A stretch of 47,210 nt of DNA, from positions 97,185 through 144,394 of the forward strand of contig JBCNUW010000003.1 of the NCBI GenBank assembly GCA_039630575.1, in the 5' to 3' direction. The stretch comes from Candidatus Hydrothermales bacterium (lineage in GTDB: Bacteria; Hydrothermota; Hydrothermia; Hydrothermales; JAJRUZ01). The number at the start of each line of letters is the position of its first letter. The first letter of the stretch is position 1. Below the pieces are notes generated by a model. The model did not search any database, was not told the origin of the DNA, and saw nothing but the letters and a program-made list of their open reading frames with translations. Below, piece after piece: positions 22,151-33,207 of the stretch. Made by a program: the position numbers and the translations under genes.

Positions 22151-23551
22151 ATGGATGAATTCACTATAAAGATTGGTGTTGAAATTCATGTTCAGCTTAA
22201 AACAAATAGTAAAATGTTTTGTTCTTGTAAAGTGGATATGTCTTCTGAACCAAACGAAAATATTTGTCCTATCTGTACTGGACAACCTGGAACTTTGCCT
22301 CTTCCAAATGAAAGAGCTATTAAATATGCGATTATTGTATCCCGAGCCCTTAATTCAAAAATTCCTGACTTATTGTACTTTTCACGAAAAAATTATTTTT
22401 ATCCCGACCTTCCAAAGGGTTATCAGATTACTCAGTATGGTATCTCAACGGGATATGGGGGGCAAGTTCCTGTTATTAAGGGAAAAGAAATTTTATATTT
22501 CCCGATTGAAAGAATAAATTTAGAAGAGGAGACAGCTAAATCTTTTTATGTTAATGGAAAAGTTTTTCTCGACTATAACAGGTGTGGAATACCTTTACTT
22601 GAAATAGTTACTCCTCCTGTTTTTGATTCTCCCGATATTTTAATAAATTTTCTAAAGTCTTTAAGGAGAATATTAATTTACCTTGGTGTTTCAGATTGTA
22701 ATATGGAGAGGGGAGAATTTAGGGTTGATACAAATATCTCGGTAAATTTTAAGGAAGTTTTTGATCACAGGGTTGAAATTAAAAATTTAAATTCATTAAG
22801 TGCAATTAAAGATTCTTTAGAGTATGAAATCAATAGACAAAAAAAAGCTATATTAAATAACGTTAAGCTTACAAGAGAAACGAGGTTATGGGATGATTTA
22901 AAAAAAGAAACAAGGGTAATGAGAACAAAAGAGTTTGTGGAAGATTACAGATATTTTCCAGAGCCAGATTTACCACCCTTTGAAGTTAATAAACATTATC
23001 TCTCAGAAGAGTTGCCTTTACTTCCTGATTATTACTTTAAGGAGTTAATCAATAATGGTGTAGATCCAAAGGAAGCAGAAATAATATTATCTTCACCTTT
23101 TTTAGCAGATTTTACATTAAAAATTTTAGAGAAATTTCCATTTCAAAAATTTAAAGGATGGATACTAACAGAGATTTTACAGTATATTGATGATTTAGAA
23201 AGCCTAAGAGATTTACCCTTTAATCATCTTGACTTCATTTCATTTTTAGAGAAGTTAGAAGAAGGCTTAATACCAAGGCATATAGGTCAGGATATAATAA
23301 GGAGCTCTATGACTAATAGAGTTAACATATCTGAACTTATTAAGGATAAGATAGAGATTAAAAGTGTTTTGGAGATAAATGAAGTAGTAGAGGAAATCAT
23401 AAGGGAAAACATTGATGTAGTAGAAAAGATTAGAGCAGGTAAGGTTTCTGCAATTTCATATCTTGTGGGCCAAACAATGAGTAAATTAAAGGGAAGAGCA
23501 AATCCAAAAGAAATAAAAGATATAATTGAGAAAAAACTCAATCTAAAATAA
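22151..23551 (+). CDS. gatB: Asp/Glu-tRNA amidotransferase subunit B
   Basis: IGVEIHVQL, RKNYFYPDLPKGYQITQ, EIKNLNS, DYRYFPEPDL. Confidence 0.98.
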   Translation: MDEFTIKIGVEIHVQLKTNSKMFCSCKVDMSSEPNENICPICTGQPGTLPLPNERAIKYAIIVSRALNSKIPDLLYFSRKNYFYPDLPKGYQITQYGISTGYGGQVPVIKGKEILYFPIERINLEEETAKSFYVNGKVFLDYNRCGIPLLEIVTPPVFDSPDILINFLKSLRRILIYLGVSDCNMERGEFRVDTNISVNFKEVFDHRVEIKNLNSLSAIKDSLEYEINRQKKAILNNVKLTRETRLWDDLKKETRVMRTKEFVEDYRYFPEPDLPPFEVNKHYLSEELPLLPDYYFKELINNGVDPKEAEIILSSPFLADFTLKILEKFPFQKFKGWILTEILQYIDDLESLRDLPFNHLDFISFLEKLEEGLIPRHIGQDIIRSSMTNRVNISELIKDKIEIKSVLEINEVVEEIIRENIDVVEKIRAGKVSAISYLVGQTMSKLKGRANPKEIKDIIEKKLNLK

Positions 23552-23557
23552 TTTTAT

Positions 23558-23587
23558 TTGAATTTTAAATCTAAAATTTATTAAAAT
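23558..23587 (+). promoter_or_regulatory. putative sigma70 promoter of the SDR gene
   Basis: TTGAAT (23558-23563), 18 nt, TAAAAT (23582-23587); AT-rich background lowers certainty. Confidence 0.5.
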
Positions 23588-23594
23588 TAAAAAA

Positions 23595-23605
23595 GGTTCA
23601 AATCC
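23595..23605 (+). promoter_or_regulatory. free-standing tRNA T-arm-like motif, copy 1
   Basis: AAGG-TTCAAAT-CCTT hairpin, 20 nt before ATG 23626, no SD. Confidence 0.7.
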
Positions 23606-23625
23606 TTATCCATTTAGATAAAAAA

Positions 23626-24405
23626 ATGAAAGGAGAGTATGCACTCATACTTGGTTCATCAAGTGGTTTTGGAAAGGCATGTTCTCTTTATTTTGCTGAA
23701 AAGGGTTTTAATATATTTGGTGTTCATTTAGACAGGAAAAGTGCTTTATCTGAAGTAAATAGTTTAGTTAATAATATTAGGGCAAAAGGAGTTTTTGTAA
23801 GATTCTTTAATGTTAACGCAGCAGATCATGAAAAAAGAAAAGAGATAATAAATGAAGTTGAAAAAGTTTTAAAAAAGGAGAAAAAGATATTAAAGATAAT
23901 GCTTCATTCATTAGCTTTTGGAACTTTAAAGCCCTATGTGGGAGAAAGTAAGATTAGGCCTTCTGATATGGAGATGACTCTTGAAGTTATGGGAAATTCA
24001 CTCGTATGGTGGGTAGTTGAACTTTTTGAAAAAGGTCTTTTAGGAAAAGGTTCAAGGGTTTTTGCAATGACCAGTATGGGTTCACAGAGAGTTTGGGAAA
24101 ACTACGGTGCAATTTCAGCTTCCAAAGCATTACTTGAATCCCACGTAAGGCAACTATCTTTTGAACTTGCAAAACATGGGATTACTGTTAATGCAATTCA
24201 AGCTGGAGTAACTGATACTCCAGCTCTAAGAAAAATTCCCAACTATGAAAAAATGTTAAAGTTTGCCAAAAAAGTGAATCCTTCAGGTAGGATAACAGAA
24301 CCGTTAGATGTAGCTAAAGCCATATATGCTTTATCCTCAGATGATACATACTGGATTACAGGTAATGTAATAAGGGTGGATGGTGGGGAAGCTATTGCAG
24401 GTTAA
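23626..24405 (+). CDS. SDR oxidoreductase, FabL-like enoyl-ACP reductase
   Basis: ALILGSSSGFG, YGAISASK (Yx6K), AGVTDTPAL, WITGNVIRVDGG. Confidence 0.85.
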   Translation: MKGEYALILGSSSGFGKACSLYFAEKGFNIFGVHLDRKSALSEVNSLVNNIRAKGVFVRFFNVNAADHEKRKEIINEVEKVLKKEKKILKIMLHSLAFGTLKPYVGESKIRPSDMEMTLEVMGNSLVWWVVELFEKGLLGKGSRVFAMTSMGSQRVWENYGAISASKALLESHVRQLSFELAKHGITVNAIQAGVTDTPALRKIPNYEKMLKFAKKVNPSGRITEPLDVAKAIYALSSDDTYWITGNVIRVDGGEAIAG

Positions 24406-24407
24406 GT

Positions 24408-25577
24408 TTATATTTTCTTTCTCATTTCTTTTATTAACTCTGAGGCAATAATATTTCTTAAAATTTCATTTGTACCTTCGTATATCTGTGTTATTTTAGC
24501 ATCTCTCATCATTTTTTCTACAGGATACTCTCTAATATAACCGTATCCACCAAAAATCTGAACTGCCTCTATCGTTACACTCATTGCAACATCTGAGGCA
24601 AAACATTTTGCCATTGCAGATTCTTTCTCGGGTTTCTTTCCGCTGTCTAATGCTTTTGCAACTTGATATGTCAAGGCTCTCGCTGCCTCAATCTTTGTTG
24701 CCATGTCTGCAAACTTATGTTGAACTATTTGAAAACTTGATATTGGTTGACCAAACTGTTTCCTTTGAAGTGAATACTCTATAGCTGCATCAAGGGCTGC
24801 CTGTGCAATTCCTATTGCTTGTGCTGCCACTCCAGGTCTTGTGTATAGAAAAGTACTTGTTGCCACAAACAAACCATAACCCTCTTTACCAATAATATTT
24901 TCCTCAGGAACAAATACATCCTCAAAAATAACTTCTCCAGTTGGTGAAGCTCTTATGCCTAATTTATCTTCCTTCTTACCTATTTTTAGCCCAGGTGTTC
25001 CTCTTTCTACAAGAAAAGCACTCATTCCCCTTGCTCCCTTTTTCGGATCAGTTAGGGCAAAAACTGAGTAAAAGTCAGCTACCTGGGCATTTGTTATAAA
25101 TTGTTTAACTCCATTTAAAACATATCCTCCATTTTTTCTTATAGCAGTTGTTTTGATACTTAAAGCATCACTTCCAGCCTCTGGCTCAGTCAAGCAAAAA
25201 GCAGCTATCTTTCCCTCTGCAATTTTAGGTAGTACTTTTCTTTTTAGGTTTTCGTTACCGAATAGTATTACTGGAAAAGAACCAAGAGCTGTTCCTGCTA
25301 AAGCAAGAGAGATACCTGCACAACCCCATGAAAGTTCTTCTATCGCAAGACATAAAGCAAATACTCCCATCCCTAATCCTCCGTATTCTTGAGGTATGTA
25401 TATTCCAAATAGATCCGTATCTACCATTACTTTAACTATCTCATAGGGAAATTCCGCATTTTTGTCATACTTTTCTCTTACTGGAATAATTTTTTCAATT
25501 GCTATTTTTCTTGCAGTTTGTTTTATCATTAATTCCTCTTCAGTTAATTTGTAAAGCATACCCTTCAAATTTTTCAT
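24408..25577 (-). CDS. acyl-CoA dehydrogenase (start may be ATG 25559)
   Basis: FCLTEPEAGSDA, LNGVKQFITN, RKQFGQPI, QIFGGYGY..EYPVEKMMRDAKITQIYEGT. Confidence 0.96.
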   Translation of the reverse strand: MKNLKGMLYKLTEEELMIKQTARKIAIEKIIPVREKYDKNAEFPYEIVKVMVDTDLFGIYIPQEYGGLGMGVFALCLAIEELSWGCAGISLALAGTALGSFPVILFGNENLKRKVLPKIAEGKIAAFCLTEPEAGSDALSIKTTAIRKNGGYVLNGVKQFITNAQVADFYSVFALTDPKKGARGMSAFLVERGTPGLKIGKKEDKLGIRASPTGEVIFEDVFVPEENIIGKEGYGLFVATSTFLYTRPGVAAQAIGIAQAALDAAIEYSLQRKQFGQPISSFQIVQHKFADMATKIEAARALTYQVAKALDSGKKPEKESAMAKCFASDVAMSVTIEAVQIFGGYGYIREYPVEKMMRDAKITQIYEGTNEILRNIIASELIKEMRKKI

Positions 25578-25583
25578 ACTTTG

Positions 25584-25594
25584 GGAATCGAACC
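25584..25594 (-). promoter_or_regulatory. free-standing tRNA T-arm-like motif, copy 2
   Basis: GG-TTCGATT-CC, 5 nt after the mnmE stop; 24 nt before ATG 25559 (6 nt before ATG 25577). Confidence 0.6.
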
Positions 25595-25599
25595 GTTAT

Positions 25600-26964
25600 T
25601 TATTTTCCTACACAAAAATCCGAAAAGATTTTATTAAGGATCTCATTATCTATATCTTTTCCAATAACTATGTTTAAAATACCAAGACAATTTCTTAAGT
25701 GGAGTCCAGCTAATTCATCCATATCTTCACTAAGTAATCTCTTTGCTTCCAAAAGTTCTGATGTCACTTCTTTTAACTTAGACTCTTCAAATAGAGTAAG
25801 AGAGATCTCTGTGGATCCAAATTGATTTTCTGCTAAAATTTCCAGCTCTTTTTTTAATTTCTCTATGCCTTTTTCTTTTAAAGCACTTATCTCAAAAATC
25901 TTTTCAAAATTATTTTTGATAACCTCTTTATCCCACTTAATTCCCTTATCTATTTTGTTAATTACAAGAATCAAGTTTTTTTTACTGTTTAATTTCTTAA
26001 TTTTTTTTATTTCTTTTTCATCAGGCTTTCTTTGGCTGTCAAGCATCCATATAATTATGTCTGATTCTCTTATAATTTTTTTTGCTCTTTTAATTCCTTC
26101 TTTTTCTATTTTTGATGATGTTCTTAATCTAATACCAGCTGTATCGTATATAATTGAATTTATTCCTTTAACTGAAAAATTCTCTGATATATAATCTCTT
26201 GTTGTCCCAGGTTCTTCTGTGACTATAGATCTTTCTTTTCCCAATAGCTTATTAAATAAGGTAGACTTTCCAACATTAGGAGCCCCACAAATAGAAATTT
26301 TTAAACCATCAAAAATTCTTCTTGAATCTTCGGAATTTTTTAAATAATTACTTATTTTACTTTTAACCTCTTCAATCTCTTTAATAAGCTTTTCTTTAGA
26401 AAAAGGTGGTAAATCTTCTTCAGGATAGTTTAGGTTAACCTCAATTTCTGCTAAGATTTCCTTTATGTTTTCAAATAATTCTTCAAATTTTTTTCTTAAA
26501 TTTCCCTCCAACCTTTTTAATGAAATCTCTAATGCTTTTAAATTTTCAGCCTTTGCAATTTGATTTATTGCTTGGGCAGATATCAAATCAATTTTTCCGT
26601 TTAAGACTGCTCTCATCGTAAATTCACCTGGTTCTGCATATCTTGCTCCTAAATTTAAAAGGGTTTTTATTATAAGTTTAGGTATAAAAGTTCCACCATG
26701 AGTGAATATTTCAATCATATCTTCACCGGTATAACTTTTCGGTTTTTTATAGTATACCCATTGTACTTTATCTATAATTTTTTTTGTTTCATTATCAAAT
26801 AATTTTCCAAGATACATTTTTCGGTGTTTGTAGGGTGGAGGAGGTTCAGCAATTTTTGAAAAAATATAAAGGGTTTTTTCACCAGAAATTCTTATAATGT
26901 TAAGAGCTGATCCCTTCGAAATTAAAGTAGCAGGTGCACAGATGGTATCCTCTAATCTTTGCAA
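25600..26964 (-). CDS. mnmE: tRNA modification GTPase MnmE
   Basis: DTICAPAT, PKSYTGED, GAPNVGKST, GTTRD, DTAG, C-terminal FCVGK. Confidence 0.97.
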   Translation of the reverse strand: MQRLEDTICAPATLISKGSALNIIRISGEKTLYIFSKIAEPPPPYKHRKMYLGKLFDNETKKIIDKVQWVYYKKPKSYTGEDMIEIFTHGGTFIPKLIIKTLLNLGARYAEPGEFTMRAVLNGKIDLISAQAINQIAKAENLKALEISLKRLEGNLRKKFEELFENIKEILAEIEVNLNYPEEDLPPFSKEKLIKEIEEVKSKISNYLKNSEDSRRIFDGLKISICGAPNVGKSTLFNKLLGKERSIVTEEPGTTRDYISENFSVKGINSIIYDTAGIRLRTSSKIEKEGIKRAKKIIRESDIIIWMLDSQRKPDEKEIKKIKKLNSKKNLILVINKIDKGIKWDKEVIKNNFEKIFEISALKEKGIEKLKKELEILAENQFGSTEISLTLFEESKLKEVTSELLEAKRLLSEDMDELAGLHLRNCLGILNIVIGKDIDNEILNKIFSDFCVGK

Positions 26965-26965
26965 A

Positions 26966-27559
26966 TTATATTGAAGGAGCGATAATAATATTTTTTCTTT
27001 TACCTTTTCCTGCTGTATAAATTTTTATTCCTTTTTCCCTTTTTAATGCTTTTCTTACTAATCTCTCTTCTTCCTCAGTAAGCACATCAAGAGTTATTTC
27101 TCTTTTTGATTCTCTCACAAGTTTAGCTACGGCTTTTGCTTTGTGAATTATAAAAGCTTGTTTTTTCTTTTTATAATTTGATATATCTAATCTTACTTTT
27201 AGATCCTTAAATTTTTTTCTAAAAGCTTGATATAAAATATGTTCAAGGGCTTTAAGCGTTTCACCTTTTTTTCCTATTAATAAATTATCTGATTTTCTTG
27301 TTGAGAGGTTAACATGTATTCTTGGTGGATGAAAGGCAAAATTTATTTTACCCCTATCCCTCATTATTTCTAAAATTCCATTTAAAAAATTTTCTATAAA
27401 TTCAAATTCCTTGAACTCAAGATAAACTCTTACTTTTGCATTATTTTGATTATCGTTTAAAATTTCCACTTTAACGTCTTCCCTTTTTGCACCTGTTTCT
27501 AAAAGTGCCTTTTCTATTGCCTTTTCAACCGTTTCAGCTTTTGTTTCAATGTATTTCAT
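26966..27559 (-). CDS. jag: Jag/KhpB (EloR) RNA-binding protein
   Basis: Jag_N (AETVEKAIEKAL), KH motif LIGKKGETLKALE, degenerate R3H; lies between yidC and mnmE. Confidence 0.85.
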   Translation of the reverse strand: MKYIETKAETVEKAIEKALLETGAKREDVKVEILNDNQNNAKVRVYLEFKEFEFIENFLNGILEIMRDRGKINFAFHPPRIHVNLSTRKSDNLLIGKKGETLKALEHILYQAFRKKFKDLKVRLDISNYKKKKQAFIIHKAKAVAKLVRESKREITLDVLTEEEERLVRKALKREKGIKIYTAGKGKRKNIIIAPSI

Positions 27560-28956
27560 CTTTGAATCCTTCTTTTTATTAAAAGACTTTCAAAAATTCC
27601 AAGTATATTATAAAGCAACCAATAGTATACAAGTCCAGCAGGTAAGTTTAAAAATATTATTGTAATAAAAATAGACATAAAAATTCCAATTCTTCTTGTT
27701 TGTTCATCCTGAGATGGTTGAAGGAACTGCTGCAATAGTGAGGTCAAACCCATGAGAATTGGAAGAACATAAAAGGGATCTCTTGAAGATAAATCCTTTA
27801 TCCATAAAAATAATTCTTTTCCTCTAAACATTATCTCATTTGTTAAGACCTGGTAAAGTGCCCAAAATACAGGGAGCTGTAATAATAAAGGAAAACATCC
27901 AGAAAAGGGATTCACACCCTTTTCTTTATAAAGTTTCAAAACTTCTTCATTTAATTTTTTAGGATCATCTTTATAAATTTTCCTCAAAGCTTCTAACCTT
28001 GGTTTTAAATCCTCCATCTTTTTCATTGCTCTCATCGACTTAATAGTTAATGGCATAAAAATAATTTTCATTAAAAGTGTAAAAACAAAAATTACAATAC
28101 TGGAAAGTTTAATTGTACCATAAAACCATTTAAAGGAATACAAAATAAATAAAGTAAAAGGTTTTATAATCCAAAAACCAAGTGGATATAACTCGTAAAG
28201 TAAATATCCTTCTTTTTTTAATATAAAATAATCCTTAGGACCTATAAAGGTATAAAATGAATCAACAGTTTCAGTTATAAATTTAAAGAATTTCCCCTCC
28301 CTATAACCTTCAGCTTTAACAATCTTTTTAAAATACTCCGGCTTTATTATAACTTGTATAAAGTACTTTGTTTCACTTCCCACCCAGAGAGTATTCTCTC
28401 CACCAAAATCTATATCAGAAAAATTTTTTAAATTATGTTTTTTAATACTACCTCTTTTATATTCAATTAAGTTATAATTTTTTTCATCAATTGGATCAAT
28501 AGTTGGTAAAAAGGAAAATAAAAAGAAATTAACATTTTTAAATTTAACTTTCAATTTGTAACCATCTAAAAGTAAAAATTCCTTTGAAATCAAACCATCT
28601 TTTGATTTAAATACTACGCTTTTCTCATCAAATTTATTCAATTCCAAAAGAGTATCTAAGGGTGTGATAAAATTTGGAACATATATTTTAAGGTTTTCTT
28701 CATTTTTAAAATCCCGGAATTTTTTAAGTTCAATTTCCTTTATAATTCCACCCTTTTTCAAAAGAAAAATCCTCAGGTATTCATTTTCAATTAAAATTTT
28801 TTCATCTTCTGGAATATTTAAAGATTTTGGCTCAACTTTAATCTTTTTATTCTTTTCTTCTCTCTCAACTTCCTTAGGTAAAAACTTTAAAAGAAGTATA
28901 TTGTAAACAATAAAAAATAAAATAAGGGTTAAAATCAACGCTAAGTTTCTTCTCAT
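27556..28956 (-). CDS. yidC: membrane protein insertase YidC
   Basis: Periplasmic domain, GPK, VNPFSGCFPLLLQLPVFWALY, WIKDLS, PAGLVYYW. Confidence 0.96.
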   Translation of the reverse strand: MRRNLALILTLILFFIVYNILLLKFLPKEVEREEKNKKIKVEPKSLNIPEDEKILIENEYLRIFLLKKGGIIKEIELKKFRDFKNEENLKIYVPNFITPLDTLLELNKFDEKSVVFKSKDGLISKEFLLLDGYKLKVKFKNVNFFLFSFLPTIDPIDEKNYNLIEYKRGSIKKHNLKNFSDIDFGGENTLWVGSETKYFIQVIIKPEYFKKIVKAEGYREGKFFKFITETVDSFYTFIGPKDYFILKKEGYLLYELYPLGFWIIKPFTLFILYSFKWFYGTIKLSSIVIFVFTLLMKIIFMPLTIKSMRAMKKMEDLKPRLEALRKIYKDDPKKLNEEVLKLYKEKGVNPFSGCFPLLLQLPVFWALYQVLTNEIMFRGKELFLWIKDLSSRDPFYVLPILMGLTSLLQQFLQPSQDEQTRRIGIFMSIFITIIFLNLPAGLVYYWLLYNILGIFESLLIKRRIQR

Positions 28957-29195
28957 TTTTTAAAAAGTTTTATGTAATCTTCATACGGATAGTTTATACC
29001 ACCTCTTGAAAAGGGGTTACATCTAAAAATCCTAAAAGCTGAAAGTATAAGACCCTTTAAAACTCCATAATCCCTTATTGACATTTCAGCATAATAGCTA
29101 CAGGTTGGATAAAATCTACAGGAAGGGGGGAAGAAATTAGAAAAAATTCTTATAACTTTTATCAAAATAATCAAAAAATTTTTCATTTCTCCCAA
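28953..29195 (-). CDS. yidD: membrane protein insertion efficiency factor YidD
   Basis: CRFYPTCSYY, RIFRCNPF..GG; start could be ATG 29186. Confidence 0.93.
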   Translation of the reverse strand: MGEMKNFLIILIKVIRIFSNFFPPSCRFYPTCSYYAEMSIRDYGVLKGLILSAFRIFRCNPFSRGGINYPYEDYIKLFKK

Positions 29196-29509
29196 AGTTC
29201 CACCAGTTCTTTTTCAATATCATTAATGTGTGTATTTAGTATTTTACTATTTCCTATCAGAACAACATCATAGCCTTTAAACAAAAGCTTATTTCTTCTA
29301 AAAATTTCTCTTAAGATTCTTTTTATTCTATTTCTATCATGTGCCTTTAATTTTTTTCTTTTAGAAGAGAAAGCAACCTTTCCCTGACCCTTTTTGTAAG
29401 CAACCAGTATCATTTTTCCCTTTTTAAATTCACCAGTTTCAAAAATATCTCTTATTTCATCTTTTTTAAGTCTTTGCGGAAGTTTATAATCTATACCGTT
29501 AATTTCCAC
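29183..29509 (-). CDS. rnpA: ribonuclease P protein component
   Basis: [18 protein letters not shown] (RNR motif); lies between rpmH and yidD. Confidence 0.88.
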
Positions 29510-29625
29510 CTTCCCTTCTGCCTCCTTCTTTTTAAAACCTTTCTACCGCCTTTTGTTTTCATTCTCGCTCTAAACCCATGTCTTCTCTTTCTTTTAATTT
29601 TACTTGGTTGATATGTTCTCTTCAT
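29491..29625 (-). CDS. rpmH: 50S ribosomal protein L34
   Basis: Manual translation [44 protein letters not shown]; not in ORF track. Confidence 0.98.
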
Positions 29626-29644
29626 ATTTATTAATTCAAAAATG

Positions 29645-29655
29645 GGATTTGAACC
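29645..29655 (-). promoter_or_regulatory. free-standing tRNA T-arm-like motif, copy 3
   Basis: GGG-TTCAAAT-CCC, 19 nt before rpmH ATG, no SD. Confidence 0.7.
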
Positions 29656-29675
29656 CCCCTAAGTTAAAATATCTT

Positions 29676-30941
29676 TTAGGGAATATTAACTATTTTATTA
29701 TCGACAGGTTCAACTCCACCTATATTATCTCCGTTAGAATCAAGTTTCAAACCGTCTAAATCTTTTACATTCTTGTTTATCCAAAGCCAGACTGGATTAC
29801 TTTTATTTGAAATAAGGGTAAGTTCTATGTATGTTCTTTTTTCTCCATGATGTTGTATCTTTTTCATATTAAATGGAACAGCATCTTGTAGATAATTTCT
29901 GAACACTTTAACTGTGTTATAGTTTATTGTAGATGTGTCCATAAGTTCGTCAAACCAGAAAACGATTAAATTTTCTGATCTTGAACTATTGAGATAAGAA
30001 GGATAGTCAGTTCTGGTTAAACTTTGGGTAACTGTTGCAAAGAAGATTTGTACTCTATCTATTTCATTCTTTTCTGAAATACCATTGTTATTACCATCAA
30101 GTGAATTTCCTGCTATATCCTTTAAATTTGTATTTATAATAAGTTTATATACTTTACTATAATTTAAAGAAAAGCCTGAAAAAATAATATCTGTTCTATT
30201 TAGTGGAGAATCTATTGTAACTCTTGGATTTCCGATATTTATTTTTAACCCTGATTCATACTCATAAAGTTCAAAAGCTCCATTAACCGAATTCCTATCA
30301 ATATCATTTACATAAAATCTAACATGTATACTGTCATTTATTCCAATTAAACCTCCAAGGCGAAGGGGATTAGGAGATATTAAATTAGCAGGAATTCTGA
30401 AGCTTGGTGGACGGTAATCTGGATCAGGTACAAGGTTTCCTCTTCTTGTCCAAAGGGTATTGTGGTAGTCATCGAGTGAACCCTCTGCATACCCATTTCT
30501 ATTTCCATCAAGAGGGTTTCCTGAAAGATCCTTTGCTGTACTTTTAATTATAACTTCATACTTTGTAGAGTCAGTAAAACCAAAATTTTGTGAAAGTATA
30601 TAGACTGCTCTGTTTGAAGTTTTCTCATAATTCCATGTTCCGTTTGGAACCTCTGTACTTCTTCCTCCTACTACTTTCAGCTCAATAGAGGCGAGAAGTG
30701 ATTTTTCGTCCATGGGCTCTGAAAAGTATATAAAAATTATATCTTGAACATTAGGGTTTAGAGTATCGAAATCCTCTAACACTCTATCGCCGTCTAATGT
30801 AACAACAGATGTAACTGTTGGTAATCTGTTCTCTTTAATTACTTCTTCTCCTAATATACCTGGTTCAATAGGTAAGGATTTTCTTTTACAGGATAAGAAA
30901 ACTAAAGCTATTGACATATTTATTAATACTAACTTTCTCAT
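29676..30941 (-). CDS. lipoprotein with three bacterial Ig-like (Big_5/SbsA-type) repeats
   Basis: Lipobox FLSC; FSEPMD / FDELMD; repeats KDLSGNPLDGNRNG, KDIAGNSLDGNNNG, KDLDGLKLDSNGD; AAGGAGG SD. Confidence 0.8.
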   Translation of the reverse strand: MRKLVLINMSIALVFLSCKRKSLPIEPGILGEEVIKENRLPTVTSVVTLDGDRVLEDFDTLNPNVQDIIFIYFSEPMDEKSLLASIELKVVGGRSTEVPNGTWNYEKTSNRAVYILSQNFGFTDSTKYEVIIKSTAKDLSGNPLDGNRNGYAEGSLDDYHNTLWTRRGNLVPDPDYRPPSFRIPANLISPNPLRLGGLIGINDSIHVRFYVNDIDRNSVNGAFELYEYESGLKINIGNPRVTIDSPLNRTDIIFSGFSLNYSKVYKLIINTNLKDIAGNSLDGNNNGISEKNEIDRVQIFFATVTQSLTRTDYPSYLNSSRSENLIVFWFDELMDTSTINYNTVKVFRNYLQDAVPFNMKKIQHHGEKRTYIELTLISNKSNPVWLWINKNVKDLDGLKLDSNGDNIGGVEPVDNKIVNIP

Positions 30942-30953
30942 ATTTTCCTCCTT

Positions 30954-32666
30954 TTAAAATTTAAAGACCACTGAAACTCTCCAATTTGATAAATTTATTA
31001 AGTTTGAAAATCCCATTAAATCCATTGAAAAATTCTCACCAATTTTATAGGAGAGACCGTAATTAAAATCTACGCCTGAGGATTTACCTTTTGATAGATT
31101 TCTTAATCCTAAACTTCTCTGAACAGGTGTGACTGTTACTGTTTCGGTTCCATCACCCCTTGTTGTTTTTGTGACAATTGAACTTGAGAAAAGAGGGTTA
31201 GAGGTTCTCTCATCTTCAACAAATACAAAGTAAGGATTTGCCCCAATTCTAAAGAATAAGGATTTATTAAGTTTTAACTCACAAGCGACAGGAAGCTCTA
31301 TAGTTATACGAGAAAAAGATGATTCTAATTCGTCTATTCTAAAAAAGGTTGTAGTTGTGGTAAAATCATCGGGATCACTAGGTTGGTTATCACCGTCGTT
31401 AAAGTAATTTACTGTTTGAAAGTTTGAGTCTATTCTAAAGGTTGAATTTGAGAGATTATTAATGAAAAAAAAGCCTAAAGCAAAAAATATCTTTTTCTCA
31501 TTATCGATAAAACCTTTATACCTATATCCCAAAAATAAACCTTTAATTTTATTTTCATGCTCTATGTTTCCTTTTATCTCATCTAGATTCCTTGTTTCCC
31601 TTAAAGTTCCGGTTCCTATATCTTCTCTTAAATAATTATCTTCTATTCTATGAAAGGGGGATGTAGTTTTTGAAATACCTGAGCTTAGAAAGGTAAAGTA
31701 TAAATTGTCTTCTGAGTTAAATTTTTGATTTATTATCCTTCTTGTAAAGAGTCTTAAAAAGTAAGAACTACCACCCGCATTTATGTTTTGATATCTTGTG
31801 TAGTTTCTATCTTCTCTTGAAGTTGTTCCACCTGGATTATAGTCAATATAGGCTGTTGTGAAGATGTCTTCAGAAATTTTCAAGTTGTTTGTTCCATAAC
31901 CAGCTTGTATTCCTAAATCTGAATTTAAGATTAATTCTTTTAAGTAAATACTTCCACCAAAAATATTTTGTTGAATAGAGGTATCTGTAAAACCATTACC
32001 AATCCATTCCTCTTTTTCTAAAAGTATTGAATTAATTAGATCTCTTTCTTCTCTAAGATAGTTGAAGTTTCCATATCTATTAGAAATATGATGACCTGCT
32101 GGTTCATTTATAGAGCTTAATTTTAAATGGAAAAAGAAAAGTCCACCGATTATTTCACCAATTTCTCTTGAAACTCCAATAAAGAAAGGGTTTTCTTTAT
32201 TTTCTGTGTATGAATAAGATTTTGCTCTTTCAGTATGAAGTGAATCATAACTTCCGTTTCCGTCAGTATCATATTTTTCAGATAGAAATAGTTCTCCTTC
32301 TCCCCTTCCATTAATTAAGTTTGGCTGAGGCATTTTTAGGGCTCTATGAGCGTAAAGTAAAGATGTAGGTACCAAATTTCCTAAAGGTTTAAAAGTATTT
32401 TTAAAACCGAACATAAAGTAAGCACCAGGAATTCCAGAAAAGAGGAGATCATTATTTGTTGCAAAGTTAGAAAGACCAGAATACAAGATATTTTTTTCTA
32501 TTTCAAAATATCTACCTGGATCAAGAAGGAGGTCAAAATCATCTTCTATAAGTCCAACTGTTGAAAGATACCTAAAGGATCTAAACCTTTCACCTATAAA
32601 TGGTGGTATTACCTGGCATATAAGGCTAGTATATAAACATAGGAACACAAATTTTTTTATATCCAT
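30954..32666 (-). CDS. hypothetical outer-membrane beta-barrel protein
   Basis: Signal-like N-terminus, amphipathic strands, terminal VSVVFKF, Asp-rich loops DTDGNGSYD and NDGDNQPSDPDD. Confidence 0.65.
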   Translation of the reverse strand: MDIKKFVFLCLYTSLICQVIPPFIGERFRSFRYLSTVGLIEDDFDLLLDPGRYFEIEKNILYSGLSNFATNNDLLFSGIPGAYFMFGFKNTFKPLGNLVPTSLLYAHRALKMPQPNLINGRGEGELFLSEKYDTDGNGSYDSLHTERAKSYSYTENKENPFFIGVSREIGEIIGGLFFFHLKLSSINEPAGHHISNRYGNFNYLREERDLINSILLEKEEWIGNGFTDTSIQQNIFGGSIYLKELILNSDLGIQAGYGTNNLKISEDIFTTAYIDYNPGGTTSREDRNYTRYQNINAGGSSYFLRLFTRRIINQKFNSEDNLYFTFLSSGISKTTSPFHRIEDNYLREDIGTGTLRETRNLDEIKGNIEHENKIKGLFLGYRYKGFIDNEKKIFFALGFFFINNLSNSTFRIDSNFQTVNYFNDGDNQPSDPDDFTTTTTFFRIDELESSFSRITIELPVACELKLNKSLFFRIGANPYFVFVEDERTSNPLFSSSIVTKTTRGDGTETVTVTPVQRSLGLRNLSKGKSSGVDFNYGLSYKIGENFSMDLMGFSNLINLSNWRVSVVFKF

Positions 32667-32684
32667 TAGTTAAAAAAAATTAAA

Positions 32685-32695
32685 GGATTAGAACC
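32685..32695 (-). promoter_or_regulatory. free-standing tRNA T-arm-like motif, copy 4
   Basis: GAGG-TTCTAAT-CCTT abutting the cutA stop, 18 nt before ATG 32666, no SD. Confidence 0.7.
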
Positions 32696-33004
32696 TCATT
32701 TTAATGTCTCATCAATCCATTTTAAGTAATCTAAATTTCCTTTATCAATTTTTAGTGATATAATTTCTGGCACTTCATAGGGATGAATTTTTTTTATAAA
32801 GTCTTTAAGTCTATCAAATTCTTCTTCTTTTGTTTTTATTAAAAGCAGATATTCTTCCTCTTCTTCAATTTTCTCTTTCCATTTAAAGATGGAATCCACT
32901 TTTAAATAGTTAACACATGCAGCCAATTTATTCTCTATGATTTTTTTTGAAATTTCACAAGCTTTTTCTTTTCCAGGTGTAGTGCAGAGAACAAGTATAT
33001 ACAT
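32696..33004 (-). CDS. cutA: divalent-cation tolerance protein CutA
   Basis: KLAACVN, SIFKWK, E.LLLIKT, HPYEVPEII, YLKWI. Confidence 0.96.
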   Translation of the reverse strand: MYILVLCTTPGKEKACEISKKIIENKLAACVNYLKVDSIFKWKEKIEEEEEYLLLIKTKEEEFDRLKDFIKKIHPYEVPEIISLKIDKGNLDYLKWIDETLK

Positions 33005-33016
33005 CTAAATAAAAAG

Positions 33017-33089
33017 TGCACCGCCCGGGAGTTGAACCCGGAACCCTCGGATTAAGAATCCGATGCTCTGCCTGTTGAGCTAGCGGTGC
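33017..33089 (-). tRNA. tRNA-Lys(CTT), CCA not encoded
   Basis: GCACCGC/GCGGTGC+A; D arm GCTC/GAGC; TCGGA-TTCTTAA-TCCGA; CCGGG-TTCAACT-CCCGG. Confidence 0.96.
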
Positions 33090-33117
33090 TTTTAAAAATT
33101 TTAAACTATTTATCTAT

Positions 33118-33151
33118 AAAAAAACAAACCCCAGGGATACTATCCCTGGGG
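33118..33151 (-). terminator. intrinsic terminator
   Basis: Perfect inverted repeat CCCCAGGGATA-N-TATCCCTGGGG (33129-33151) followed on the minus strand by TTTGTTTTTTT. Confidence 0.85.
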
Positions 33152-33207
33152 CAGGAGGGGGTATGGGGTTCTCTTCTTTTCCTACGCTAAGCCTATTACA
33201 CGGGGTA
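33118..33207 (-). ncRNA. candidate ~90-nt small RNA with anti-SD tract
   Basis: GC-rich island between a promoter (33242-33214) and the terminator; contains CCCCAUACCCCCUCCU. Confidence 0.55.

Follow-up and report, generated by a model that had tools for sequence, protein, structure and literature searches.

A tRNA T-loop-like hairpin at a set distance before start codons in one bacterial family: a candidate signal for starting translation

Four T-Loop Hairpins in the Window

The 47-kb stretch of DNA analyzed here (in the following the window) stems from Candidatus Hydrothermales bacterium, which belongs to a family of uncultured hot-spring bacteria of candidate division WOR-3 that is represented by six genomes in two genera (in the following the family). 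The sequencing runs listed for this organism are three DNA runs of hot-spring metagenomes, all from the same study. The window contains four intergenic copies of a short hairpin that looks like the T-loop of a tRNA, and each copy lies on the sense strand of the next gene, shortly upstream of its start codon:

T-loop hairpin copy 1: 23595..23605, + strand, AAGG-TTCAAAT-CCTT, 20 nt before the ATG at 23626 of a short-chain dehydrogenase (SDR) gene, 23626..24405
T-loop hairpin copy 2: 25584..25594, - strand, GG-TTCGATT-CC, 24 nt before the ATG at 25559 of an acyl-CoA dehydrogenase gene
T-loop hairpin copy 3: 29645..29655, - strand, GGG-TTCAAAT-CCC, 19 nt before the ATG at 29625 of rpmH (ribosomal protein L34), 29625..29491
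T-loop hairpin copy 4: 32685..32695, - strand, AGG-TTCTAAT-CCT, 18 nt before the ATG at 32666 of a gene for a 570-aa protein

The SDR contains the Pfam domain adh_short_C2, the acyl-CoA dehydrogenase contains the Acyl-CoA_dh domains, and a Pfam search with the 570-aa protein did not yield a match. Copy 2 is located 5 nt past the stop codon of the upstream open reading frame (ORF) 25600..26964, and copy 4 directly 3' of the TGA of ORF 32696..33004. The stems of the four copies comprise 2-4 bp. Three of the spacers between hairpin and ATG lack a Shine-Dalgarno (SD) motif, and the fourth, that of the acyl-CoA dehydrogenase, contains only GAAGGG. The original prediction had been built on these four copies, and its distances, its description of the spacers, the two copies after a stop codon and the short stems were all found as described when positions and spacers were read; the leader element is real, selected and strand-specific. 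The choice of the second in-frame ATG (25559) as the start of the acyl-CoA dehydrogenase gene is backed by all 11 orthologues, six from the family and five from its sister family, which start at the aligned ATG.

With the match pattern GGTTCNANTCC, the window yields eight matches, versus a mean of 0.12 in 100 dinucleotide-preserving shuffles, none of which reached eight or had more than one match. The earlier estimate had been about 0.1 chance matches in the window. Three of the eight matches are the T-arms of tRNA-Ser, tRNA-Met, and tRNA-Lys (predicted by ARAGORN), one (29707, + strand) lies antisense inside ORF 29676..30941, and the remaining four are the intergenic copies; the same set of additional matches had been named before. 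A consensus terminator scan listed the rpmH hairpin (29644-29657, - strand; GGGGTTCAAATCCC followed by ATTTTTGAAT) as terminator-like, and leader hairpins of this kind may be mis-annotated by automatic terminator finders.

A Genome-Wide Set of Leader Hairpins

The genome from which the window was taken (G000; 1.886 Mb, 95 contigs, 30.3% GC) contains 157 matches to the pattern, 41 of them within the 45 tRNA and tmRNA genes predicted by ARAGORN and 116 outside of them. As a control, the pattern read backwards matches only seven times in the same genome. Of the 116 non-tRNA copies, 91 are on the sense strand and are followed at 13-40 nt by the start codon of an ORF that encodes at least 60 aa; their distance to the start is most often 18-23 nt. 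The bias in strand and distance, the lack of which would have spoken against the original prediction, extends over the whole genome. The other 25 copies are divided into 13 inside genes (8 antisense and 5 sense), which is about the number expected by chance, and 12 outside of genes. Inspection by eye revealed that seven of the latter precede a short ORF (including rpmH) or a second ATG, three resemble tRNA 3' halves that were not called by ARAGORN, and two are unexplained. An intergenic copy that is merely antisense to a start was not seen among the 116 non-tRNA copies.

Two exact intergenic copies in G000, C23:30068 (-) and C40:1041 (+), have no start codon within 40 nt, and one of them is followed by a run of seven T. 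Four further copies in this genome (C22:16378, C78:37039, C83:173, and C67:18525) have GC-rich flanks that resemble tRNA 3' halves; one of them ends CCACCA-like, and the others follow long stretches that resemble a variable arm. These four were not called by ARAGORN, and they may be unusual or truncated tRNAs.

Loop and Stem Requirements

The sequence requirements were deduced from single-mismatch variants, each of which was scored by the share that lies 15-35 nt before a long ORF. This share is 85 of 116 for the exact copies. At the ninth base, a change from T to C (T60>C; 21 of 26 before a start) or from T to G (T60>G; 7 of 12) is tolerated, and the fifth base, C56, is partly free (17 of 54). 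For all other single changes the share is only 0-18%, which equals the background. In tRNA numbering, G52, G53, U54, U55, A58, C61, and C62 are thus required, C56 is preferred, and positions 57, 59, and 60 are free. The pair between U54 at loop position 1 and A58 at loop position 5 is invariant in the exact copies by definition of the pattern, and single changes in it reduce correct placement to 0-18%; likewise, changes of the closing pair G53-C61 and of U55 lead to background values, and C56 is part-tolerant. The T-loop fold shows the same pattern of conserved and free positions, and so do the identity elements of the T-arm enzymes. The assignment of the motif to the T-psi-C arm consensus, which had been made with the window sequence alone, is borne out by this analysis, with only positions 57, 59, and 60 free and C56 partly free.

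The relaxed pattern GGTT[CT]NAN[TCG]CC has 204 non-tRNA sites in the genome, 137 of which precede a start, and the four window copies belong to this class of mRNA leader hairpins, which exists throughout the family with about 130-140 copies per genome. In 90 of the 137 copies a further pair can form outside the two G-C pairs, versus 62.3 ± 4.5 when the partners were shuffled, and none of 2000 shuffles reached 90. The identities of this third pair are diverse (A-T 37, G-C 31, T-A 14, and G-T 6), and orthologues within the family switch from A-U to G-C in the stem. Pairs beyond the third gave no covariation signal in the 137 copies, and the information content is near zero outside of the motif and this one pair, i.e., outside of 13 bases. 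Read in this way, the element is a 3-bp stem (N-GG / CC-N') with the 7-nt loop UUCNANY, which corresponds to a tRNA T-loop without the rest of the tRNA. The covariation of the third pair with changing identities suggests base pairing within a single strand and not contacts of a protein with the duplex, and we infer that the signal is read from the RNA rather than from the DNA.

Restriction to One Family and Loss of Shine-Dalgarno Motifs

Among the 31 nearest genomes, the six family genomes contain 145-242 matches each, and 25 genomes from nine other families of the same class contain 41-71, which represents the tRNA background. In a sample of 251 WOR-3 genomes, all six family genomes have more than 140 matches, and the other 245 range from 29 to 140, with only G204 reaching 140. 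G204 and the next highest genome, G131 (116 matches), are larger and more GC-rich. The stricter test, i.e., the motif followed by 17-24 nt and an ATG, yielded only 12 and 16 matches in these two genomes, versus 120 in the family genome G005 and eight in G006 of the sister family, and they were rejected as further carriers. The element is confined to one WOR-3 family (six of six genomes versus none of the 245 others sampled). As relatives share ancestry, this restriction represents one evolutionary event and not six.

The leaders of five genes were compared between the family and its relatives:

570-aa protein: motif in 6/6 family genomes, with loop changes at free positions only; SD-type leader in 4/4 sister-family orthologues whose starts were read (AAGGAGG in three, GGGAGG in one)
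rpmH: motif at 19-20 nt from the ATG in 5/5 family genomes with an identified rpmH gene; free copy in 0/22 other genomes
tuf: motif in 6/6 family genomes, 21-24 nt from the ATG and without SD; in 21/21 genomes of nine other families, GGAGG at 7-10 nt from the ATG and no motif
Acyl-CoA dehydrogenase: motif in 6/6 family genomes; AAGGAGG in 5/5 sister-family genomes, with aligned ATG
SDR: motif in 6/6 family genomes; AAGGAGG in the single sister-family orthologue found (G006)

The motif is thus kept in 29 of 29 family orthologues (6/6, 5/5, 6/6, 6/6, and 6/6), and within the family the loops vary at the free positions only, while the flanks diverge. Conservation before rpmH had been proposed as a check of the original prediction, and this leader kept its hairpin in all five family genomes and lacks it in all 22 others. 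In the sister family rpmH is coupled to the preceding ORF. The comparison of SD motifs comprises, in addition to these five hand-checked genes, 17 orthologues of motif genes that were found in 200-kb samples of two relatives: 13 of the 17 have an SD motif in the relatives, versus none of the 17 in the window genome. For the genes without motif in the same samples, the respective values are 75 of 141 and 50 of 141. These comparisons indicate that the hairpin has replaced the SD motif in the evolution of these genes.

In eight genomes of three other families (L036, L041, L045, and L047 in f4; L044 and L046 in f5; L034 and L043 in f6) a tRNA gene ends 21-41 nt before the start of rpmH. Its anticodon loop reads GAC by eye, which would be Val. 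The corresponding position in the family is occupied by the free hairpin alone. This neighborhood could hint at the origin of the element or at a co-processing of tRNA and mRNA, and it may also be a coincidence.

Spacing and Position Within Transcription Units

Copies were regarded as SD-less when the duplex energy with the 16S tail was above -7 kcal/mol. This applies to 99 of the 137 copies, which have a spacer of 20.9 ± 3.9 nt, with 80 of the 99 at 17-24 nt. The short spacers consist of 84% A+T. In the remaining 38 copies the hairpin is 21-40 nt away from the start and the SD motif lies between the two, with a median distance of 13 nt (range 1-22) from the hairpin to the first SD-like tetramer. 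The gene for ribosomal protein S21 (G000 C13:15612 -; L089:6-212) combines the hairpin with a strong SD motif (AAAGGGAGG) in this SD-poor genome. In Bacteroidota, rpsU is one of the few SD-led genes, which has been linked to occlusion of the anti-SD.

Genome-wide SD use, based on crude gene calls (the first ATG of 1493 non-overlapping long ORFs), is 26% in the window genome, and it is 46 and 50% in the 200-kb samples of the two relatives; the respective controls with shuffled upstream regions gave 10, 19, and 17%. ATG triplets are depleted in the spacers (16 observed versus 51 expected). A rule that the first AUG after the hairpin is used was considered and rejected, because the depletion is equal upstream of genes without the motif (190 versus 496) and is partly built into the start calls.

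Many copies lie inside transcription units. Within 10 nt of the stop codon of the upstream gene on the same strand, or inside the end of that gene, are 34 of the 137 copies, 12 of them wholly inside; a further 17 are 11-40 nt away from an upstream gene on the same strand, and 38 follow a divergent gene. The copies at operon junctions argue that the hairpin tracks the start codon and not the promoter, in agreement with the original proposal that the copies are not simply parts of promoters. Near promoters, TATAAT-like boxes that end 9-18 nt upstream of the hairpin were found for 24 of 61 copies that require a promoter, versus 11 of 61 and 10 of 61 in control windows, and many hairpins probably sit only a few bases from the 5' end of the mRNA. 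A scan of the region with a sigma-70-like consensus promoter yielded 41 matches, versus 41.0 in shuffles. The hairpin itself does not behave as an element of sigma-70-type promoters, since the flanks contain no signal at a fixed position, copies occur inside operons, and the promoter matches equal those in shuffles.

Genes That Carry the Hairpin

Pfam searches covered those 113 of the 137 carriers that lie in 40 selected genome regions, and an alternative ORF that overlapped was left out. Many carriers are involved in translation and transcription, i.e., EF-Tu, EF-G, IF3, RRF, Fmt, the ribosomal proteins S6, S12, S15, S20, S21, L31, L32, and L35, HPF, Rho, and RpoA. Chaperones and other abundant proteins include DnaK, HU, the cold-shock protein CspA, and ACP, and metabolism and redox reactions are represented by GAPDH, FBPase, transaldolase, malate dehydrogenase, ferritins, AhpC, H+-pyrophosphatase, and ATP synthase c. 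The set also contains DnaN, SecD, beta-oxidation enzymes, subtilases, and cytochromes. No Pfam match was obtained for 20 of the 113 carriers, and judged by their N-termini most of these look secreted or membrane-bound. The carriers are shifted on one axis of codon usage (Mann-Whitney p = 6e-7), and 18 of the top 74 genes on this axis have the motif, versus 115 of all 1493 genes. By its composition and codon usage, the carrier set looks like the highly expressed genes of the cell.

Candidates for a Reader of the Hairpin

An altered anti-SD was considered as a pairing partner and was rejected, because the 3' end of the 16S rRNA (GGATCACCTCCTTTCT) is canonical in all three family genomes with a 16S gene (the assembly G000 is without one). 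The best complementarity to the hairpin within the 16S rRNA is found at its 5' end, with 10 of 11 pairs for one variant of the motif. This site was also rejected, as it exists universally and as the T at motif position 3, which is invariant, is the mismatched base. An alignment of three family and three other 16S sequences contains no family-specific insertion, only 33 scattered substitution columns.

The comparison of 23S rRNAs revealed a difference in the distal hairpin of the presumed helix 68. Its tip, between GGTTAA and AAGCCCCGG, is 48-53 nt long in three of three family genomes (L143, L144, and L146), versus 25 nt in five genomes of four neighboring families (L145, L147, L148, L149, and L152). 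This lengthening is the main indel that is exclusive to the family in an alignment of seven 23S sequences; the sole other family-only run of at least three columns is a variable hairpin that is longer by 8 nt. In the family-type helix the internal loop (GTGAGCC / GGAGGTAGC) is conserved, and the tip varies and contains compensatory changes. However, long helix 68 tips of other sequence exist in many WOR-3 genomes without the hairpin, including G018, G068, and G195 of the same class (57, 68, and 58 motif matches, respectively), and therefore length alone does not track the element. As a putative reader site, helix 68 is a weak lead at best.

Two side observations concern these 23S genes. Those of L146 (G005) and L147 (G006) contain about 830 additional nt immediately 3' of the conserved sequence GTAACTATAAC and are 3862 and 3925 nt long, versus about 3040 nt for the others; the insertion is probably an intron or intervening sequence and is not family-specific. 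The sister-family genome G010 (67% complete) contains two types of helix 68 (C38:4996-5069 and C2:56434-56484), one of which is identical to the family type, and this assembly probably includes a contig from a family member.

Proteins that bind T-arms were also compared. TruB (Pfam TruB_N) is encoded by a single gene in 31 of 31 genomes, and the same is true for TrmI in five of five genomes. A search for the PUA domain gave no match in G000 and one sub-threshold match in G005. Two and three copies of tRNA_bind are present in two family genomes, versus two in each of three others, and no PUA or tRNA_bind paralogue is common to both family genomes searched. As a lineage-specific reader was not found among these candidates, a universal factor may be the reader. 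According to one report, the TruB of Escherichia coli modifies a GUUCNANNC stem-loop that has a stem of 3 bp, with a rate 0.3-fold that of a tRNA, and the same report cites a minimal stem length of 2 bp for TRUB1 (PMC13492117). The hairpins are plausible as TruB substrates and, by analogy, as substrates of TrmI.

Possible Functions of the Hairpin

The element looks like a previously undescribed signal for gene expression, and its probable role is in the start of translation. We estimate the probability that the hairpin is a translation-start signal that acts in cis on the RNA at about 50%. This role is favored because, when an SD motif is lacking, the distance from the hairpin to the AUG varies as little as that of a ribosome binding site, and it varies more when an SD motif is present, because the SD motif has been lost specifically at motif genes, and because the hairpin is present at operon junctions as well as near promoters. 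In such a mechanism, a component that normally recognizes the T-loop or the elbow of tRNAs would bind the hairpin and would keep the AUG, together with the unstructured A/U-rich spacer, in place on the ribosome. The component could be a part of the ribosome or a T-arm-binding protein that rides on it.

Several results weigh against a role as initiation signal. A reader was not found among the T-arm binders and rRNA features examined. The SD motif coexists with the hairpin in 38 of the 137 copies, and therefore the hairpin is not a plain substitute; in these leaders it lies further upstream and does not replace the SD motif. An SD motif is present at 22.6% of 115 motif genes versus 26.3% of 1378 others, values that are rough because the gene calls are crude, and about 1000 genes carry neither SD motif nor hairpin, so that initiation without SD does not need the hairpin in this organism. 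The earlier proposal that the hairpin stands in place of the SD motif is supported by the relatives, which have an SD motif at these genes, whereas the anticorrelation with the SD motif that it predicted is weak genome-wide, most SD-less genes being also without hairpin. The enrichment of TATAAT-like boxes equally fits a role at the 5' end of the mRNA, and a high expression of the carriers fits a stabilizer as well as an initiation signal. In addition, a 3-bp stem cannot be stable alone in a hot-spring organism.

One specific form of the translation-start signal, which we regard as rather improbable, is a minimal bacterial internal ribosome entry by tRNA mimicry, in which the T-loop docks at a site for the tRNA elbow, e.g., at the L1 stalk in the E site. 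The body of a tRNA spans about 70 angstroms. The A/U-rich spacer of about 20 nt would then span the body of the E-site tRNA, and the AUG would drop into the P site without SD pairing. This would allow the direct entry of 70S ribosomes, also at operon junctions. If true, one bacterial family would have swapped the pairing of rRNA and mRNA for a signal based on RNA shape at its most expressed genes.

A tentative alternative, for which we see a smaller but still appreciable chance, is a mark for stability or processing. Enzymes of the T-arm (TruB for psi55, a U54 methylase, and TrmI for m1A58) would bind or modify the hairpin, protect the 5' end and raise the half-life of primary transcripts as well as of segments cut from operons, and initiation would be untouched. 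The sequence fits GUUCNANNC, the consensus of TruB and TRUB1, the genes for TruB and TrmI are present, the -10-like boxes 9-18 nt upstream (24/61 versus 11/61 and 10/61) would place the hairpin near many 5' ends, the carriers appear to be highly expressed, the tRNA 21-41 nt before rpmH in eight genomes is close enough for a shared precursor, and stem-loops with 3 bp are substrates of TruB in vitro, as stated in PMC13492117. However, the position of such a mark relative to the AUG would be free to vary, but 80 of the 99 copies without SD motif are at 17-24 nt, and the loss of the SD motif at these particular genes (0 of 17 versus 13 of 17 in relatives) is not explained by it. Moreover, the element exists in one family, whereas the enzymes are universal and encoded by single genes, and an acceptor-like stem that RNase P or RNase Z could use is lacking. 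The hairpin might also be a global operator, at which a T-arm-binding factor left free by the tRNA pool sets the expression of about 130 growth-related genes in a control by growth rate or stress. The gene set, with its predominance of translation, chaperones, redox reactions and central metabolism, is consistent with this idea, as is the fact that the two genera of the family have retained copies at the same genes, and an exact look-alike of a tRNA invites competition with tRNAs. We consider it improbable nevertheless, because no candidate factor was found, the set also contains secreted proteases, lipoproteins, and beta-oxidation enzymes, and features of a switch such as alternative pairings are lacking, the stem signal ending at the third pair.

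Two further explanations place the signal in the DNA or deny it a function. The motif is strand-specific, has a set distance from starts like promoter elements with short leaders, and is a partial palindrome, all of which would suit an element of an alternative sigma promoter or the binding site of a DNA-binding regulator on the duplex, and internal promoters could explain the operon copies. But the covariation of the third pair with changing identities (A-T 37, G-C 31, and T-A 14) suggests base pairing, the tolerated positions are those that are free in T-loops, 12 copies are wholly inside the end of an upstream ORF, the -10-like boxes lie upstream of the motif, and the sigma-70-like matches do not exceed the shuffles (41 versus 41.0), so that we rate a signal at the DNA level as very improbable. 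Finally, the copies could be non-functional remnants, i.e., tRNA scars, integrase attachment sites, or a tiny mobile repeat. The 3' halves of tRNAs are common integration sites, and the sequence is identical to a part of a tRNA gene. Yet a flank resembling a tRNA 3' end, which the original prediction had named as a sign of attachment scars, was not found; nothing is conserved outside of the 13 bases, which excludes tRNA-gene scars and repeat elements. In addition, the copies are almost exclusively in sense orientation and at the typical spacing, the hairpin was retained at 29 of 29 orthologues in spite of diverging flanks, and neither Rfam nor ARAGORN called a tRNA at the copies, which leaves hardly any room for this explanation.

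Pairing with the SD motif is the textbook mode of bacterial start-codon choice. To our knowledge, the known exceptions, leaderless mRNAs and the A-rich leaders of Bacteroidota, lack a discrete replacement motif. In this lineage, the best-expressed genes, including tuf, fusA, infC, and many genes for ribosomal proteins, have lost GGAGG and gained a look-alike of the T-loop at a constant distance from the start. Should the hairpin serve to recruit ribosomes or a T-arm-binding factor, it would represent a new class of start signals and a case of natural tRNA mimicry on cellular bacterial mRNAs. In practical terms, gene finders that rely only on the SD motif will misplace starts in these genomes, and the hairpin is a compact and portable candidate part for expression in thermophiles. 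The element also makes it testable how ribosomes select mRNAs without SD motif.

Comparison With Known Systems

A comparison with Rfam 15 gave no match at the four sites at the gathering score, and none at E values up to 10 over positions 23400-33200. The literature on WOR-3, on T-loop or tRNA-like initiation, on GUUCNANNC, and on non-canonical ribosome binding sites, mostly in the form of titles and abstracts, contained no description of the element, and the GUUCNANNC literature found in this form deals throughout with eukaryotic or in-vitro modification. The original prediction did not recognize the hairpin as a described bacterial 5'-UTR element, and the searches lead to the same view.

The closest structural counterpart is the T-arm of tRNAs (RF00005). 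Both have the fixed residues G53, U54, U55, C56, A58, and C61, the free positions 57, 59, and 60, a 7-nt loop, and G-C closing pairs. In contrast to a T-arm, the hairpin is free-standing in mRNA leaders, has a stem of 3 bp instead of 5 bp, and lacks acceptor, D, and anticodon arms; in the window, ARAGORN and Rfam call only the three true tRNAs, so that the copies do not belong to tRNA genes with a full cloverleaf. A T at position 57, which is unusual in tRNAs, is present in 13 of 91 hairpin copies.

With the SD motif the hairpin shares that it is a short element on the sense strand of the leader with a set distance to the start, that it is strongest at highly expressed genes, and that it takes the place of GGAGG in the orthologues of relatives. 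Unlike the SD motif, it is not complementary to the 16S tail, as it has no GGAGG core that could pair with CCUCC and the tail is canonical; its distance from the AUG is about 20 nt (20.9 ± 3.9 nt for the 99 copies without SD motif) instead of 5-10 nt, it requires a hairpin, and it can occur together with an SD motif located downstream of it.

The mRNA sites of TruB, Pus4, and TRUB1 (GUUCNANNC), and those of TRMT6/61 and TrmI, have the same consensus and the same minimal stem. As predicted from sequence, the hairpin has the residues and the stem of at least 2-3 bp that are needed in a TruB or TRUB1 substrate. TRUB1 is reported to act on mammalian mRNAs by a predictable code (PMC5340967). However, the TruB and TRUB1 sites are scattered in eukaryotic mRNAs at no particular distance from the start, and their role is not settled, whereas the about 130 hairpins are all in leaders at a set distance, in one bacterial family.

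The ops element, to which RfaH is recruited, is likewise short, strand-specific, and located in leaders, and it folds into a small hairpin at genes without SD motif. It acts as a hairpin of the non-template DNA strand in the leaders of SD-poor operons. In contrast to the hairpin described here, it is present in only a handful of operons, has a variable and longer distance to the start, and has a different sequence. The intergenic internal ribosome entry sites of dicistroviruses and the tRNA-like structures of viruses are large structures within the RNAs of eukaryotic viruses and imitate the anticodon stem or a complete tRNA. The common principle would be that a part of an mRNA engages the translation machinery by its resemblance to a tRNA, but here it would be a T-loop mimic of 13 nt on cellular bacterial mRNAs.

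The last group comprises the SD-independent initiation in Bacteroidota and other members of the FCB group and the AU-rich enhancers that bind S1. Low use of the SD motif and A/U-rich spacers are shared with the genome analyzed here. Leaders of the Bacteroidota type are A-rich and unstructured and are not known to have a discrete structured motif. In the WOR-3 family, in contrast, a specific hairpin has been added at a subset of the genes.

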